Positions 4,025 through 7,375 of a DNA stretch of 64,000 nucleotides are shown piece after piece; position 1 is the first letter of the stretch; the number at the start of each line of letters is the position of its first letter. The position numbers and the translations under genes are program-made. The DNA lies in the IMG/VR virus record IMGVR_UViG_3300045988_085064; one strand, written 5' to 3'. The notes below the pieces were generated by a model. That model ran no database searches and was not told where the DNA came from. It saw only the letters and a list, made by a program, of their open reading frames with translations. The DNA comes from a virus.

Positions 4025-4156
4025 ATGATTGATGTATTGTGGAATGTCGTTTGTTGCATTGGATATGTCGCGTTTGCTTTGATTGGGATTTTATTGTGTG
4101 TTGCATTAGTTGGTTGTATTTTGAAATTGATTAAAATTTTTAAGGAGAATATCTAA
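4025..4156 (+). CDS. 43-aa membrane micro-protein
   Basis: GGAGGAG SD, then ATG 4025. Sequence MIDVLWNVVCCIGYVAFALIGILLCVALVGCILKLIKIFKENI. Too short for the ORF track. Confidence 0.35.
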   Translation: MIDVLWNVVCCIGYVAFALIGILLCVALVGCILKLIKIFKENI

Positions 4157-4220
4157 TGATTGAAACAAGAATTTATAAATGCGAATATTGCGGTGCAGGT
4201 TACGATTTCTGAGGTATATT

Positions 4221-4427
4221 ATGGATAATGTGTTAGTTAAATTTATAAAAATAATGTATGAACAGGCTAAAATGTCAAAAGATTCGTTAGATATCCATCT
4301 GTATATTGCAAATTGCGTAGGCGCTTGTGCATATGAGCATATGAGAACAGGAGAGAGACTTGCATTTAATTTATGGAAGAACGAATGGAGTGAAAAATTT
4401 AACAAATTGCTTGAAAATAATTCTTGA
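4221..4427 (+). CDS. hypothetical protein (68 aa)
   Basis: ATG 4221 follows TGAGGT. This is the in-frame inner start of track ORF 4179-4427. Confidence 0.4.
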   Translation: MDNVLVKFIKIMYEQAKMSKDSLDIHLYIANCVGACAYEHMRTGERLAFNLWKNEWSEKFNKLLENNS

Positions 4428-4452
4428 CAAACAATAAATCATATGGTATAAT
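4424..4452 (+). promoter_or_regulatory. consensus promoter (P3) driving tRNA and zinc-ribbon gene
   Basis: TTGACA 4424-4429, 17-nt spacer, TGgTATAAT. Confidence 0.7.
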
Positions 4453-4555
4453 ACAGATGTGGTTGAGAGATTGGGTAATCTCAATTACAATTCTTCATTG
4501 TGAACCTCCTGAAAATATAGTCCTGAGCATGACGCTAAAAGGCTCAATCAAATAT

Positions 4556-4648
4556 GGCGGTGTCGGTTAATGGTAAGCCAGCGGTCTTATAAACCGTTTA
4601 GCTCTAGATTGGGGCAAAATCAGAGTTCGACCCTCTGCGCCGCTACCA
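4556..4648 (+). tRNA. atypical class-II (long variable arm) tRNA, formal anticodon UAU, CCA encoded
   Basis: Manual cloverleaf. Acceptor GGCGGTG/CGCCGCT, D arm GGTT-AATGGTA-AGCC, anticodon arm GCGGT-CTTATAA-ACCGT, 23-nt variable region, T arm CAGAG-TTCGACC-CTCTG, discriminator A plus CCA. Confidence 0.6.
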
Positions 4649-4678
4649 GATAAAATCCAAATCCAATGAGGTGATAAT

Positions 4679-4915
4679 ATGGAAAAATCTCCACTAAAAG
4701 CCATCCGCGCAAAATGCTTGGATTGTACTTGTGGTCAAGCAAGCGAAGTTAAAAATTGCCAAATCAAGCAATGTCCACTTTGGGAATATAGATTTGGCAA
4801 ATCAGGGCGTACCCGCTCAATGACCGACGAGCAGAGGCAAGCTGCGGCAGAACGGCTCAAATCAGCTCGTCTGGCAAAGAAATCATTGACTAATAATGAA
4901 GAAAATTCAGATTAG
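4679..4915 (+). CDS. small zinc-ribbon protein (CxxC...CxxxxC)
   Basis: 78-aa ORF with a GAGGTGA SD. N-terminus KAIRAKCLDCTCGQASEVKNCQIKQCPLWEYRFG. Confidence 0.6.
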   Translation: MEKSPLKAIRAKCLDCTCGQASEVKNCQIKQCPLWEYRFGKSGRTRSMTDEQRQAAAERLKSARLAKKSLTNNEENSD

Positions 4916-5052
4916 TTGATTAAGTAAGGTAAGTTGTAGGGTAAGTAGTTAAGAGGAATTTATTGATTATTAGTGTATGATTATTTTATTTGCTTGTTTA
5001 GGCTCGTTTGCGGCTGGCGTTGCAGTTGGGATGCTGATTGCAAAAACAATGC

Positions 5053-5081
5053 TTGACAAATAAAATCAAGTATGGTATAAT
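5053..5081 (+). promoter_or_regulatory. consensus promoter (P4) of the 1-kb tRNA/structured-RNA transcript
   Basis: TTGACA 5053-5058, 17-nt spacer, TGgTATAAT. Confidence 0.7.
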
Positions 5082-5092
5082 TGAAAATGTAA

Positions 5093-5267
5093 ATAATATC
5101 CGACCGGATTTGAAGATAACCGTCAAAATCTATATCACGCCTGTACTGAGGTCTGCGCAGAGTTTGAGAAGCGGCAGATACAGACTAGAGAATTGGGGTC
5201 GCGCCTGAGCGTGTTCCGTTAGCATGAGGACAAAAACATAACGGCAAAGGTGATATAAGGATATTAT
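5093..5267 (+). ncRNA. closed structured RNA domain D1 (unknown class)
   Basis: ATAATATCC (5093-5101) pairs with GGATATTAT (5259-5267). Nested inside it, TATATCAC (5131-5138) pairs with GTGATATA (5250-5257). No ORF. Confidence 0.35.
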
Positions 5268-5335
5268 GTAAACATCATTCACGGGTCAGTGCTAGAAATA
5301 GCTATGAGGTAGGAAGCTGGCTTGAGATAAAATAT

Positions 5336-5420
5336 GCGGGATTGGTGGAATTGGCAGACACATCTGATTCAAGCTCAGATGCCGTAAGGCGTAGGGATTC
5401 GAGTTCCCTATCCCGCACCA
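5336..5420 (+). tRNA. tRNA-Leu (anticodon CAA)
   Basis: Canonical class-II cloverleaf. Acceptor GCGGGAT/ATCCCGC, D region GTGGAATTGGCAGACAC, anticodon arm TCTGA-TTCAAGC-TCAGA, long variable arm, T arm AGGGA-TTCGAGT-TCCCT, ACCA end. Confidence 0.9.
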
Positions 5421-5512
5421 TTAAGTCCACAGCTTGTTGGATGCATACGGCTTGCTAAACTGAATAGGAATCCAATGCTTCTAATGGGTTGATGCTTAAA
5501 GCCCATTTCCAT

Positions 5513-5607
5513 ATGATAGCAAGTAGCGCAAATTTTATATAAGATGCTCAATGAGAATTGGGGAATGTATATAAGATGAGGTCATGCGCGGCCTCGCTTG
5601 CTATCAT
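5513..5607 (+). ncRNA. closed structured RNA domain D2 in a tRNA-equivalent position
   Basis: An 11-bp terminal helix: ATGATAGCAAG (5513-5523) pairs with CTTGCTATCAT (5597-5607). It is preceded by the same leader hairpin and CCATAT motif as the tRNA-like element at 5726. Contains an internal direct repeat TATATAAGATG twice. Confidence 0.3.
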
Positions 5608-5725
5608 AACCAGTAGTTATGGTTTGTTGACCATTGTTTGGATTACTAGCCAATCGATGCCTAGAGTCGATAAAAACAAATCAATGGCGGTTCTGGTAGG
5701 TTGAGCCTAAAGCCTACTACCATAT

Positions 5726-5799
5726 GACCGTATCAGCTAATTGGTAAGCCCAAGCTGTTCAGAGCAGTTGGAATGCAGATTCAAATCCTGCTTCGGTCA
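5726..5799 (+). tRNA. tRNA-like element, formal anticodon CAG, imperfect
   Basis: Acceptor GACCGTA/TTCGGTC has one T-T mismatch. There is an extra nt between the D and anticodon stems. Anticodon arm AGCTG-TTCAGAG-CAGTT. T arm GCAGA-TTCAAAT-CCTGC has an A-C mismatch. No encoded CCA. Needs tRNAscan-SE. Confidence 0.35.
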
Positions 5800-5805
5800 T
5801 ACGAT

Positions 5806-5987
5806 TATAGGATTGCACACAGTTATGCCCACCATTGTAACTGACCCAGATGCAAACCTAAGAAAATCTTAAAACCCTTAGTAAATAACGCGCGTCACTG
5901 CTAAGGTTGGCTGTTGGTCGAATCTCATCTAGTACCATCCGAAGAGCAAAACTGGAAAATGTGCTCATAGTGCGGTGATAATCCTAT
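5806..5987 (+). ncRNA. closed structured RNA domain D3 (unknown class)
   Basis: ATAGGATT (5807-5814) plus GCAC (5815-5818) pairs with GTGC (5970-5973) plus AATCCTAT (5980-5987). Followed by hairpin ATAGGG (6001-6006) with CCCTAT (6052-6057). Confidence 0.3.
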
Positions 5988-6140
5988 TCCGTGCATTGGT
6001 ATAGGGCTTGGGTAAAGATGACCTTGTAAGTAGTTGATAGTGGAACAATAACCCTATATATCAAGTCAATATGCGCATGAACATTGCGACTTGTTTTAAT
6101 AAAATTTTATTAGAAATTGAAAGGAAATTAAAAGGAATTT

Positions 6141-6416
6141 ATGACAAAGAAGGAACTAATCAAGTTTGTAGCAGATAGTACAGAGAATACGGTCAAGGAC
6201 ACAACTGAGATCGTAGATACGTTCATTGACTATATCAGACATAGCCTAGTTCAGCATGAAGATGTGGTGATTCATGGCTTTGGCAAGTTTACAACTAAGC
6301 TGCGAGATGCAAGAACTGCTCGTAATCCACAGACTGGTAAAATCATTGAAGTCCCTGCCAAGTATGCTCTGACGTTTAAGCCGACAAGCACACTAAAGGC
6401 AGAAATCAATGAGTAA
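6141..6416 (+). CDS. hup: HU/IHF-family DNA-binding protein
   Basis: 91 aa. Sequence KKELIKFVA...VVIHGFGKFTTKLRDARTARNPQTGKIIEVPAKYALTFKP is the classic HU arm motif. Confidence 0.85.
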   Translation: MTKKELIKFVADSTENTVKDTTEIVDTFIDYIRHSLVQHEDVVIHGFGKFTTKLRDARTARNPQTGKIIEVPAKYALTFKPTSTLKAEINE

Positions 6417-6430
6417 ATAATCCTCCTGTT

Positions 6431-6467
6431 AAAATCCCTATGGTCGAAAGATTGTAGGGATTTTTCT
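6431..6467 (+). terminator. rho-independent terminator after hup
   Basis: AAAATCCCTA (6431-6440) pairs with TAGGGATTTT (6455-6464), then a T run. Confidence 0.7.
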
Positions 6468-6477
6468 AAAATAACCC

Positions 6478-6506
6478 TTGACAAATTGTCGCTATGGTGC
6501 TATACT
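6478..6506 (+). promoter_or_regulatory. sigma70-type promoter (P5)
   Basis: TTGACA 6478-6483, 17-nt spacer, TGcTATACT. Confidence 0.7.
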
Positions 6507-6535
6507 TAAATCATCAAATGAAGGAGCTGAACATT

Positions 6536-7375
6536 ATGAATGAACTGTTTATTATGAGCCTCAAGGCAAAGCATCGTAGCGAAGGCACTGTTCGTGAATA
6601 TACCAAGGCGATTGAGAATTGCATGGCTTATGTCAATAAGCCTGAAGCTGAAATCAAGCCGATTGACCTTGAATTGTGGCAGTCCAGCATGAGCAATCTC
6701 AGCTCTGCATCTGTTGCTCAGAGAACATCTGCGGTCAGAGAATACTTCAAATTCCTTTATCGGAATGAATTCATTAGCCGCAATCCGGCTGAGATGCTTG
6801 AAGCACCGCAGATTAAAAATCGTGAGCAGTCAGCTCTTAATGGTGAACAGGTCAGGGCAATGGTCAATGCGGCAACTAATGAGCGCAATAAAGCAATTAT
6901 TATGATGCTTGCTCAGACTGGTTTGCGTATTCATGAGCTTGCTAATATCACGCTTGAACAGTATGAATCCCGTAGTAATAATGTGCTGGTCATCCGTGGC
7001 AAGGGCGATAAGGATAGGCTGGTTGGTCTGGCAGATGAAACAATCGAGCTGATTGATAACTATATTTCCAATGAGCGCAAAGATGGATGCGAATATCTGT
7101 TCGTAGGCAATCGTGGAAATAAAATGGATGGCAAGAACACCAGCGCCATGCTCAAGGTATGTGCTAGAAAAGCTGGTATTGAAAATTGGGAAGAATTGCA
7201 TATTAGTAATCATACCATGCGCCGCACATTTGCTACTATGATGTCTGAGGCTGATGTACCTATTGAGATCATTAGTAAAGCAATGGGGCATAGTTCAGTT
7301 GCCATTACAGCGAATAGATATATTAAGCGTACAGAGCAGAGAGCAATTAACGCAATGAGCGTTGTTAATTTCTAA
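6536..7375 (+). CDS. tyrosine recombinase/integrase (XerC/D-like)
   Basis: The C-terminal sequence HTMRRTFATMM...MGHSSVAITANRYI carries the R..H..R..Y catalytic pattern. ATG 6536 follows GAAGGAG. Track start 6494 lies upstream of the predicted transcription start. Confidence 0.85.
   Translation: MNELFIMSLKAKHRSEGTVREYTKAIENCMAYVNKPEAEIKPIDLELWQSSMSNLSSASVAQRTSAVREYFKFLYRNEFISRNPAEMLEAPQIKNREQSALNGEQVRAMVNAATNERNKAIIMMLAQTGLRIHELANITLEQYESRSNNVLVIRGKGDKDRLVGLADETIELIDNYISNERKDGCEYLFVGNRGNKMDGKNTSAMLKVCARKAGIENWEELHISNHTMRRTFATMMSEADVPIEIISKAMGHSSVAITANRYIKRTEQRAINAMSVVNF

Follow-up and report, generated by a model that had tools for sequence, protein, structure and literature searches.

A mosaic array of tRNA genes and small folded RNAs in a phage genome, including a conserved RNA family without an Rfam match

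Anatomy of the array

The window, i.e., the whole stretch of viral DNA that was analysed (64,000 nucleotides, IMG/VR record IMGVR_UViG_3300045988_085064), contains upstream of a gene for an HU/IHF-family protein (hup) a non-coding region of about 1 kb in which the ORF list shows nothing longer than 56 aa. An earlier note, made from the letters alone, had described a non-coding region without ORFs, with a strong promoter upstream and modules closed by helices, and this description was borne out. The following features were recognized:

5053-5081, + strand: promoter of the sigma-70/sigmaA-type consensus (TTGACA, 17-nt spacer, TATAAT, TG upstream of the -10)
5093-5267, + strand: D1, a conserved multi-helix RNA of ~175 nt (44/48 arrays; covariation)
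5282-5324, + strand: L element, a structured tRNA leader (47/48 arrays) with an outer stem (5282-5290 / 5316-5324), an inner hairpin GCUA-GAAA-UAGC (5291-5302) and a purine-rich internal loop of 13 nt (5303-5315)
5336-5420, + strand: tRNA-Leu(CAA), class II, with encoded CCA (ARAGORN; Rfam)
5483-5507, + strand: leader hairpin of the next slot, AAUGGGUU / AGCCCAUU, then CCAUAU (fold; 29/48 arrays)
5509-5608, + strand: D2, a rare cassette folding as a three-way junction (fold; 2/48 arrays), closed by a stem of 13 bp (5512-5524 / 5596-5608) and bearing a long arm rich in A/U and a 6-bp hairpin rich in G+C (5578-5595)
5609-5725, + strand: spacer containing two hairpins, a small one (5653-5671) and a further leader hairpin (~5695-5720), and ending in CCAUAU
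5726-5799, + strand: borderline tRNA-like gene, anticodon CAG (Rfam)
5800-5881, + strand: trailer module F, with a local hairpin; the module carries the 5' strand of a proposed helix D3 (z = -2.3)
5882-5962, + strand: module G, with no recognisable structure or family (9/48 arrays, 96-99% identity; z = 0.1)
5970-5994, + strand: small conserved hairpin GUGCGG / CCGUGC, preceded by CUCAUAG (24/48 arrays)
6000-6058, + strand: H element, closing helix UAUAGGG / CCCUAUA and inner hairpin 6010-6013 / 6021-6024 (31/48 arrays)
6062-6097, + strand: near-invariant hairpin (6062-6067 / 6088-6093) followed by UUUU, ahead of the hup ribosome-binding site (48/48 arrays)
6141-6416, + strand: hup, HU/IHF-family DNA-binding protein (ORF; PHROG 379)

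The promoter scored 12/12 and was kept in 47 of the 48 complete arrays; it would place the transcription start at ~5088. The comparison set consisted of 48 related phage contigs with complete arrays, in which the pieces come and go independently. The presence of single modules ranged from 2/48 to 48/48, each independent of the others, and the length of the array from ~370 to 2,000 nt. Because the pieces vary independently and the array varies in length, the region is regarded as a promoter-driven cassette array. The ~1 kb is a string of separate small RNA genes, both tRNAs and folded RNAs, and not one giant RNA. One array (L018) contains an HNH homing endonuclease gene. The relatives of the window phage derive from human-gut metagenomes, and its closest cultured DnaE polymerases are those of Clostridioides and Bacillus phages. 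In a blastn comparison of the region with cultured phages, only tRNA-level matches were obtained.

At the downstream end, hup is probably co-transcribed with the array; all matches of its product to the NCBIfam IHF/HU models were below the curated cut-offs. A gene for a Xer-like tyrosine recombinase (6494-7375) lies just downstream of hup. The earlier note had seen no obvious terminator before hup, and a terminator scan indeed made no call, but the hairpin at 6062-6093 with its UUUU does precede the hup ribosome-binding site. This hairpin is weak (-7.1 kcal/mol, z = -0.6) and is a candidate for a weak terminator, a processing site or a regulatory element of hup.

D1, a conserved multi-helix RNA

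D1 was found to consist of a closing helix, a nested 8-bp helix and five further helices:

5093-5101 / 5259-5267, + strand: P1, AUAAUAUCC perfectly complementary to GGAUAUUAU
5107-5113 / 5123-5130, + strand: P1a hairpin, with the near-invariant loop AGAUAACCG at 5114-5122
5131-5138 / 5250-5257, + strand: P2, UAUAUCAC perfectly complementary to GUGAUAUA
5140-5142 / 5149-5151, + strand: P3
5152-5158 / 5171-5178, + strand: P4, with the near-invariant loop AGAGUUUGAGAA at 5159-5170
5193-5197 / 5204-5208, + strand: P5
5216-5221 / 5239-5244, + strand: P6

P1 and P2, which the earlier note had already drawn, are both conserved and covary in homologues. In a MAFFT alignment of 45 distinct D1 sequences, 96.3% of cells were paired and 16 of 43 pairs showed compensatory changes, against 1-6 in slid controls. 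When divergent members were added, the figure rose to 35/43 against 5-14 in controls, in an alignment fitted to the D1 model itself. These counts overstate the number of independent events, because there are only ~6-8 independent lineages. Covariation of P1a was seen in L216, L226, L212 and a short paralogue of D1. Moreover, G.U pairs outnumber A.C pairs (91 vs 33), which favours an RNA read from the + strand. The single-sequence stability of D1 is unremarkable (z = -1.2, and -2.4 on the opposite strand), and the support for the predicted fold is comparison between sequences and not stability.

By searching with the D1 model, members were identified in three diverged lineages, in addition to the short paralogue. 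The proteins of L212 and L226 that match those of the window have only 24-45% identity (HU 30-39%, recombinase 35-39%), and the D1 loops are retained there. Furthermore, mosaic breakpoints coincide exactly with the ends of the P1 helix, with at least five different upstream flanks and 2-3 downstream flanks; P1 is weakened in a few recombinants, e.g., L024 and L050.

Pairing of the P3 loop with 5180-5185 in a pseudoknot is kept as tentative only, because per-sequence complementarity was not significant against shuffles in any single sequence; two recombinants break it. An alternative P1a pairing (GAC-GG / CCGUC) was dropped in favour of GAUUUGA / UCAAAUC, for which the divergent members covary. 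The two invariant loops, compared by eye, did not covary consistently across members.

No Rfam family was matched by D1, even at E≤10. D1 is a conserved RNA family without an Rfam match, and for D1 the alternative of a new family raised in the earlier note holds. The role of D1 as the conserved core of the array and the conserved leader at 5282-5324 do not appear in that note. Candidate structured RNAs predicted en masse from IMG/VR and human microbiomes are the subject of PMC10690425 and PMC8040213; a tRNA-adjacent motif of ~175 nt is mentioned neither in the text of the former nor in the abstract of the latter. Since the data sources and the kind of object are the same, D1 may be one of these thousands of unnamed candidates.

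The D1 models R1 and R2 found no further D1 lineages among distant relatives reached via an alignment of the recombinase. In some of these relatives, tRNA arrays adjoin the same recombinase gene and D1 was not found, so D1 is dispensable. A scan of GTDB genomes with a loose D1 pattern returned 120 loci, none of which was matched by the model, and gave no host information. One GTDB locus inspected by eye (L092) lies within coding sequence.

tRNA genes, their leaders and the cassettes between them

The tRNA-Leu(CAA) is a standard class II tRNA, called by ARAGORN and scored by Rfam (RF00005) at 50.9 bits, above gathering. It is present in 21-28 of the 48 arrays; elsewhere a tRNA for Ile, Val, Phe or Met occupies the slot. 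The L element stays upstream whichever tRNA is there (47/48 arrays), is followed by an A/U-rich stretch ending in AAAAUAU directly before the 5' end of the tRNA, and has compensatory changes at pairs 5288/5318, 5289/5317 and 5294/5299.

D1 is always located in tRNA arrays, both in the main clade and in the diverged lineages. In the main clade, a tRNA slot lies ~243 nt downstream of the D1 start and holds mostly Leu, also Ile, Val, Phe or Met. In L226, L212 and L216, D1 directly abuts a tRNA-Leu. We consider it possible, though on balance improbable, that D1, either alone or together with the L element, serves as a cis-acting 5' leader and controls transcription, stability or RNase P processing of the following tRNA. 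The constant position of D1 and the L element upstream of the tRNA slot in the main clade would fit such a role, as would the attachment of the L element to the slot regardless of the tRNA, and the dedicated unit of promoter, leader, D1 and tRNA in L226 and L212. However, in L216 the tRNA-Leu precedes and D1 is downstream of it, an insert of ~290 nt parts D1 from the L element and tRNA in about one-third of the main-clade arrays, and no alternative terminator/antiterminator pairing is evident. Nor is a T-box-like specifier kept: the Leu codon beside the conserved loop of D1 is UUG in the window, UUA in L216 and CUA in the paralogue, and the T-box-like idea was rejected by eye because a Leu codon is missing at this place in L226 and L212, where D1 abuts tRNA-Leu(UAA).

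As to the function of D1, it would be a bold and rather unlikely proposal that it represents a new functional class tied to tRNA biology, either as a putative self-processing ribozyme that frees the ends of the adjacent tRNA, or as a decoy or scaffold whose two invariant loops engage proteins of tRNA processing, tRNA modification or tRNA-targeting defence. If this were true, D1, D2, RAGATH-33 (see below) and others would form a shuffled RNA toolkit matured by the tRNA machinery. The Rfam models of the small self-cleaving ribozymes (hammerhead, twister, twister-sister, pistol, hatchet and HDV-like) gave no match in the window region at E≤10, and none in five related loci at E≤0.5.

Downstream of the tRNA-Leu, D2 occupies the position of a tRNA relative to its leader hairpin, as the earlier note had stated: in L004, L008, L014 and L023 the identical leader hairpin and CCAUAUGA are followed by tRNA(CAU). 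The 11-bp helix proposed for D2 (5513-5523 / 5597-5607) is perfect and extends to 13 bp. Its position and flanks are tRNA-like, but the suggestion that D2 is derived from a tRNA or mimics one finds no counterpart in its fold, which lacks the cloverleaf, D arm, anticodon arm and T loop of a tRNA. D2 had no Rfam tRNA match at E≤10 and was not called by ARAGORN even at -ps80. With the neighbouring CCA-less tRNA-like gene it has in common the leader, the first two bases and the style of the trailer. Relative to L001, L003, L011, L024 and L026, D2 is an insertion flanked by CCA. Its minimum free energy is -38.8 kcal/mol (z = -4.8), and only two sequence variants exist across everything searchable, the copy in L012/L022 having 54 extra nt in the arm. 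A scan of IMG/VR for D2 returned only the two already-known contigs, the remainder being chance matches in coding DNA. D2 is a natural case of a non-tRNA RNA placed exactly in a tRNA processing slot, and this position suggests that phages use tRNA maturation signals to make other small RNAs.

The spacer that follows is present in 18-28 of the 48 arrays. Its stem at 5653-5671 is replaced in L026 by a different complementary stem, and its leader hairpin at ~5695-5720 is a repeat of 5483-5514. The element at 5726-5799, which the earlier note had called tRNA-like, clears the Rfam gathering threshold by 0.5 bit (29.5 vs 29 bits) in the sensitive scan only and is not called by ARAGORN at default settings; at -ps90 it is reported as tRNA(CAG) with U.U and A.C mismatches. 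It differs from a standard tRNA in having a Leu anticodon on a body with a short variable arm, no encoded CCA, and mismatches in the acceptor and T-stem. Its homologues were called with the anticodons tat, tgt, tac and cat.

Module F (5800-5863) was found in 14/48 arrays, always following the tRNA-like gene. It carries one strand of D3, the other being in the hairpin at 5970-5994. Positions 5807-5818 are indeed complementary to 5970-5987 (8 + 4 bp with a 6-nt bulge), but the helix is not conserved, and both strands occur together only in the window, L069 and L086. D3 is not a conserved domain; its strands sit in modules that assort independently (14/48 and 24/48 arrays). The local stem 5970-5975 / 5989-5994 varies compensatorily between loci instead. 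As for the terminal hairpin, its 7-bp closing helix exists in the H element but shows no compensatory change and some mismatches; the inner stem covaries (GGGU/ACCC, GGCG/CGCC, GGUG/UACC). In some relatives a tRNA-like gene stands in the position of H.

It could be supposed that all modules other than true tRNAs are non-functional debris, i.e., decayed tRNA genes and recombination scars that fold by chance. We regard this as doubtful. What would agree with decay is the low frequency of D2, F and G, which are found in 2, 14 and 9 of 48 arrays with hardly any variation among copies; likewise, the element at 5726-5799 looks like a degraded tRNA, and the z-scores of G and H are near 0. However, the idea cannot hold for D1 and the L element, which occur in 44/48 and 47/48 arrays, show compensatory changes and have persisted in lineages with 24-45% identity between matching proteins; D2, for its part, is unusually stable, its fold being kept despite the 54-nt insertion in L012. 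D2, F and G themselves could be inert debris, their homologues being too few or too similar.

Maturation of the array and comparison with known systems

The observed anatomy is modular, modules are present or absent independently, the folds of D1 and its leader covary, and D1 is constantly associated with tRNA genes. From the sequence comparisons, we consider it likely that an uncultured human-gut phage with a Firmicutes-type host carries here a non-coding operon, in which one promoter drives separately evolving small-RNA cassettes that are cut to tRNAs and stable small RNAs. The likeliest mechanism would be a polycistronic precursor cut by tRNA-processing enzymes. On this reading, the cassettes behind the single strong promoter comprise tRNA genes, look-alikes of tRNA size and further structured RNAs; each has its own terminal helix as closure, and between them lie A/U-rich spacers with small hairpins, which end in AUAU just ahead of the tRNA-type 5' ends. 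Host enzymes would cut the primary transcript, RNase P at 5' ends and RNase Z or exonucleases at 3' ends, which would release the tRNAs, with stable small RNAs as by-products. D1 of the window would then start 4-5 nt past the transcription start, and its 3' end would come from cleavage either in the spacer or by RNase P at 5336. For the L226/L212 lineage, the 3' end of D1 would be made by the RNase P cut of the abutting tRNA-Leu, and in L216 its 5' end by 3'-end maturation of the tRNA-Leu. D1 may then act in trans; the most plausible way would be that its two invariant loops bind a protein or a second RNA. The mosaicism may result from recombination between co-infecting phages at shared spacers, with homing endonucleases helping.

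Among the products of the phage T4 tRNA cluster, which also includes the gene of the homing endonuclease segB, are two stable RNAs (species 1 and 2, bands C and D); these small RNAs of unknown function are matured by host tRNA-processing enzymes. The present array would resemble it in combining tRNAs and small stable RNAs within one phage operon, and it can likewise hold a homing endonuclease gene; this likeness implies no kinship of sequence or structure. The array differs in the much stronger mosaicism of its cassettes among relatives and in the tRNA slot that holds the non-tRNA D2. Phage tRNA clusters are usually annotated as tRNAs plus junk, whereas conservation in this cluster is highest for an element other than a tRNA, namely D1.

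GOLLD RNAs are larger than ROOL RNAs. Both (RF01998 and RF03087) are structured non-coding RNAs of phages and prophages, often found by tRNA genes, and the average length of ROOL is 581 nt (PMC5737381). The earlier note had regarded the region as the best candidate for a GOLLD-type RNA. That the whole ~1 kb is one large ornate RNA of the GOLLD/ROOL type, or of a new such family, with an embedded tRNA, is now largely refuted and seems highly improbable to us. What speaks for it is the non-coding phage context with tRNAs, as reported for GOLLD and ROOL (PMC5737381), and the minimum-free-energy fold of the whole region, which draws long-range helices; most of the helices listed in the note are also present in the sequence, but not as parts of one GOLLD-type RNA. 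The Rfam scan that the note had proposed as a check matched tRNA as the one family even at E≤10, and cmscan at the gathering threshold and, over 4300-6500, at E≤10 gave no GOLLD or ROOL match, only tRNA and chance-level matches. Moreover, the modules assort independently in the 48 related arrays of ~370-2,000 nt, D3 as the sole proposed inter-module helix is not conserved, and D1 recurs alone in other phages without the remaining modules. D1 itself has a context like that of GOLLD and ROOL, with phage genes throughout the window and tRNAs adjacent, but this is a matter of context and insufficient for membership. D1 has only ~175 nt, and the 1-kb region consists of independent modules and not of one fold. 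In practice, an annotation of the region as a giant RNA like GOLLD should be avoided. D1 offers a small, synthesisable candidate for experiments on the role of orphan phage RNAs beside tRNAs, a question that also concerns GOLLD and ROOL.

It is just as improbable that the hairpins act as DNA, i.e., as integron-like recombination sites for the tyrosine recombinase encoded nearby, as replication sites or as sites bound by HU: the Xer-like recombinase and HU genes just downstream and the cassette-like mosaicism would suit this, but the recombinase fails the integron integrase model TIGR02249 (66 bits vs a cut-off of 265) and scores higher with Xer models, is co-oriented with the array with hup between them, unlike intI/attI, the junctions inspected show no attC-like or shared repeat beyond the CCA duplication at D2, the G.U excess over A.C in D1 points to + strand RNA structure, and module edges coincide with RNA helix ends.

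Rfam scans of 30 related loci returned nothing except tRNAs and RAGATH-33 (RF03102), an orphan structured RNA that has no match in the window and no similarity to D1, and of which no mention was found in the literature searched. Because RAGATH-33 was found with 139.9 bits at a cassette position in the arrays of L012 and L022, there is at least one further module in these arrays that already has a catalogue entry as a candidate structured RNA.

A cassette array upstream of hup

The non-coding stretch 5082-6140, bounded by a promoter (5053-5081) and the HU/IHF-family gene hup (6141-6416), is a cassette array and not one folded RNA. This follows from the piecewise occurrence of its elements in 48 contigs holding both promoter and hup, and from the breakpoints, which coincide exactly with the ends of terminal helices. 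The region was a mosaic among relatives by blastn, the arrays ranged from about 370 to 2,000 nt, and at least five unrelated upstream flanks join D1, all at AUAAUAUCC. The described absence of open reading frames was borne out, as none exceeds 56 aa.

Array elements in the window and the number of arrays containing each
5053-5081, promoter, perfect TTGACA-17-TATAAT with TG upstream of the -10: 47/48
5093-5267, D1, structure on the + strand: 44/48
5271-5326, leader, including the L element (5282-5324): 47/48
5336-5420, tRNA-Leu(CAA): 21-28/48
5483-5511, leader hairpin: 29/48
5509-5608, D2: 2/48
5726-5799, tRNA-like gene: 25-31/48
5800-5881, trailer F: 14/48
5882-5962, G: 9/48
5964-5998, hairpin: 24/48
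6000-6058, H element: 31/48
6062-6093, hup-proximal hairpin: 48/48

The 64-kb window is most of the genome of an uncultured tailed phage. It codes for a DnaE-type polymerase, ribonucleotide reductase, helicase-nuclease and portal protein, with a single strand switch near 32 kb. The nearest DnaE-type polymerases are those of Clostridioides and Bacillus phages (42-50% identity). Close relatives, of about 85-100 kb, came from IMG/VR and ENA human-gut metagenome assemblies; 26 were fetched via the adjacent recombinase gene and 43 more via a D1 pattern. No cultured phage shares the region beyond tRNA-level similarity.

The earlier note had proposed a single transcript of about 1 kb, of GOLLD type or else a new family. 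GOLLD and ROOL also occur in phages or prophages adjoining tRNAs (PMC5737381), but membership of the region fails on both covariance model and architecture. In a scan of the region with 4,227 Rfam models down to E≤10, no GOLLD, ROOL, ribozyme or other non-tRNA match was found, and the modules are mosaic across relatives; thus, a GOLLD-type RNA is unsupported. All the helices listed in that note are literally present: perfect 9-bp and 8-bp duplexes as the outer and nested helices of D1, an 11-bp closing helix of D2 extending to 13 bp, and a 7-bp closing helix of 6000-6058. The strands of the proposed D3 (5807-5818/5970-5987) also pair, by 8 + 4 bp around a bulge, but D3 is not kept as a domain in relatives, for the same reason as the whole-region RNA: its strands sit in modules F and G-3', which assort as cassettes and occur together only in the window and contigs L069 and L086. 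The conserved structure around its 3' strand is a local hairpin. Overall, what the note observed is confirmed in part. An integron-like reading was rejected when the neighbouring recombinase failed the integrase test.

The region belongs with phage tRNA clusters that carry orphan structured RNAs. The tRNA cluster of phage T4 includes a homing endonuclease along with two stable RNAs whose function is unknown, and would be the closest analogue of how the array system might work. Some relatives' arrays hold cassettes absent from the window, namely RAGATH-33, a short D1 paralogue, other tRNAs and an HNH gene. RAGATH-33 (Rfam, 139.9 bits) follows the array promoter and precedes D1 in L012 (3770-3882) and L022 (3766-3878); the Rfam scan did not find it in the window. 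In contig L018, the RNA array is interrupted by a homing-endonuclease gene, a 185-aa ORF with HNH_3 and NUMOD1 domains (4055-4612), which would be a plausible driver of cassette shuffling.

Fold, family and neighbours of D1

The main interest of the region centres on D1, for which the alternative of a new family holds: it has no match in Rfam 15, and compensatory changes support the fold. Its seven helices are supported by an alignment of 45 distinct sequences, with 96.3% of cells paired and compensatory changes in 16 of 43 pairs, compared with 1-6 when partners were slid. With 91 G.U pairs against 33 A.C, the structure is placed on the + strand. The alignment was turned into a covariance model, which matched, beyond the window's close relatives (the main clade), a short D1 paralogue and members in contigs L216, L226 and L212, at 90, 37 and 27 bits respectively. 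The last two are only distantly related to the window's phage, with 24-45% identity between matching proteins (HU 30-39%, recombinase 35-39%), and the L216 locus has no protein detectably shared with the window. With divergent members included, compensatory change reached 35 of 43 pairs against 5-14 in slid controls, in a model-fitted alignment of few independent lineages. P1, P2 and P6 are fully re-written in L226 and L212, and P1a (GAUUUGA/UCAAAUC) is replaced across members by GAUUAGAA/UUCUAAUC, GGUCUAA/UUAGACC, GGCAG/CUGUC and GACAGC/GCUGUC. Two loops, A-AGAU-N-ACCG-U and AGAGUU-N-GAGA, are nearly invariant. Several different complementary sequence pairs tentatively suggest a pseudoknot that joins the P3 loop to the segment following P4; the pairing is short, lacks significance in individual sequences and is disrupted in two recombinants. 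The 135-nt paralogue without the two 3' hairpins stands upstream of full D1 within one array in two contigs (L014 4162-4296; L018 3359-3493). Predictions from IMG/VR or human microbiomes have yielded thousands of unnamed candidates, and D1 may already be one of them (PMC10690425, PMC8040213).

D1 was always found within a tRNA array. Main-clade arrays have a tRNA slot at about +243 nt, or about +535 nt where a cassette of ~290 nt intervenes; it mostly holds tRNA-Leu(CAA), and also Ile, Val, Phe or Met tRNAs. In L226 and L212, the order is consensus promoter, ~70-nt leader, D1, directly tRNA-Leu(UAA), then the next promoter, and in L216 D1 starts 1-2 nt past the CCA end of tRNA-Leu(CAA). Because the ends of D1 coincide with tRNA ends, it would be matured by RNase P and tRNA 3'-end enzymes.

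D2, the L element and tRNA-like genes

By single-sequence thermodynamics, D2 alone stands out (z = -4.8), with D1 at z = -1.2 and G and H near zero. By comparison with five relatives, D2 is an insertion, with CCA at its flanks, and occupies a tRNA position as had been suggested: its leader hairpin and CCAUAUGA are identical to the leader before tRNA(CAU) in L004, L008, L014 and L023. D2 shares its flanks (...CCAUAU|GA...UCA|UA...) with the CCA-less tRNA-like gene at 5726. Rfam and ARAGORN scans ruled D2 out as a tRNA. Only two variants occur among the contigs searched, one of them longer by 54 nt at the tip of the long arm, with the fold undisturbed. We infer that D2 is a cassette that fills a tRNA slot and undergoes processing as a tRNA would.

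The L element is a structured tRNA leader, in which an outer stem is combined with a hairpin capped by a GNRA loop and with a purine-rich internal loop of 13 nt. Present in 47 of the 48 arrays, the element shows compensatory changes, the window having the rarer CAG/CUG version, and is arguably a new family as well. In the H element, covariation is confined to the inner hairpin.

The tRNA-Leu(CAA) is certain. As a tRNA, 5726-5799 is borderline: Rfam gives it 29.5 bits, where the gathering score is 29, and ARAGORN called it at a relaxed threshold only, with anticodon CAG and mismatches in the acceptor and T stems. The H-element position is taken by a tRNA-like gene of ~91 nt (Rfam 37 bits), which carries additional sequence past the anticodon region, in four contigs (L003 5473-5563; L069 2242-2332; L086 7143-7233; L053 8267-8359). 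Several "tRNA-Leu" genes measure 72-77 nt and have a short variable arm (L226 5163-5234; L212 11045-11116; the 77-nt tRNA-Leu(CAA) of the window's clade, e.g., L004 4792-4868), whereas bacterial tRNA-Leu is class II.

The hup end and successive promoter units

Just before the HU gene, the hairpin 6062-6093 with UUUU (6062-6097) stays with hup and is nearly invariant in all 48 arrays, whatever stands before it. Its possible roles are as a weak terminator, as a processing site or in the control of hup. The hairpin is overlapped by a weak match to a promoter, TGAACA-16-TAAAAT (6078-6105). Directly 3' of the HU stop codon stands a strong hairpin read by eye (AAUCCCUA...UAGGGAUU, then UUUUCU; 6425-6460), which is likely to be where the array-hup unit truly terminates; the scan for terminator patterns missed it, probably on account of its 14-nt loop.

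Three near-perfect TTGACA-17-TATAAT promoters with TG extension (4424-4452, 5053-5081, 6478-6506) head successive short units: tRNA(UAU) with a small ORF, the RNA array with hup, and the recombinase. Between tRNA(UAU) and the array promoter lies a 78-aa Cys-rich ORF (4679-4915), without a match in PHROG, NCBIfam or Pfam, whose DNA is conserved among relatives. The tRNA(UAU) itself (4556-4648) has 93 nt and a ~20-nt variable arm, unusual for an Ile-type anticodon. In six relatives (L002, L006, L009, L012, L017, L026), the leader and trailer of this slot are kept, but the tRNA bodies between them are unrelated and 76-95 nt long, each with anticodon UAU.
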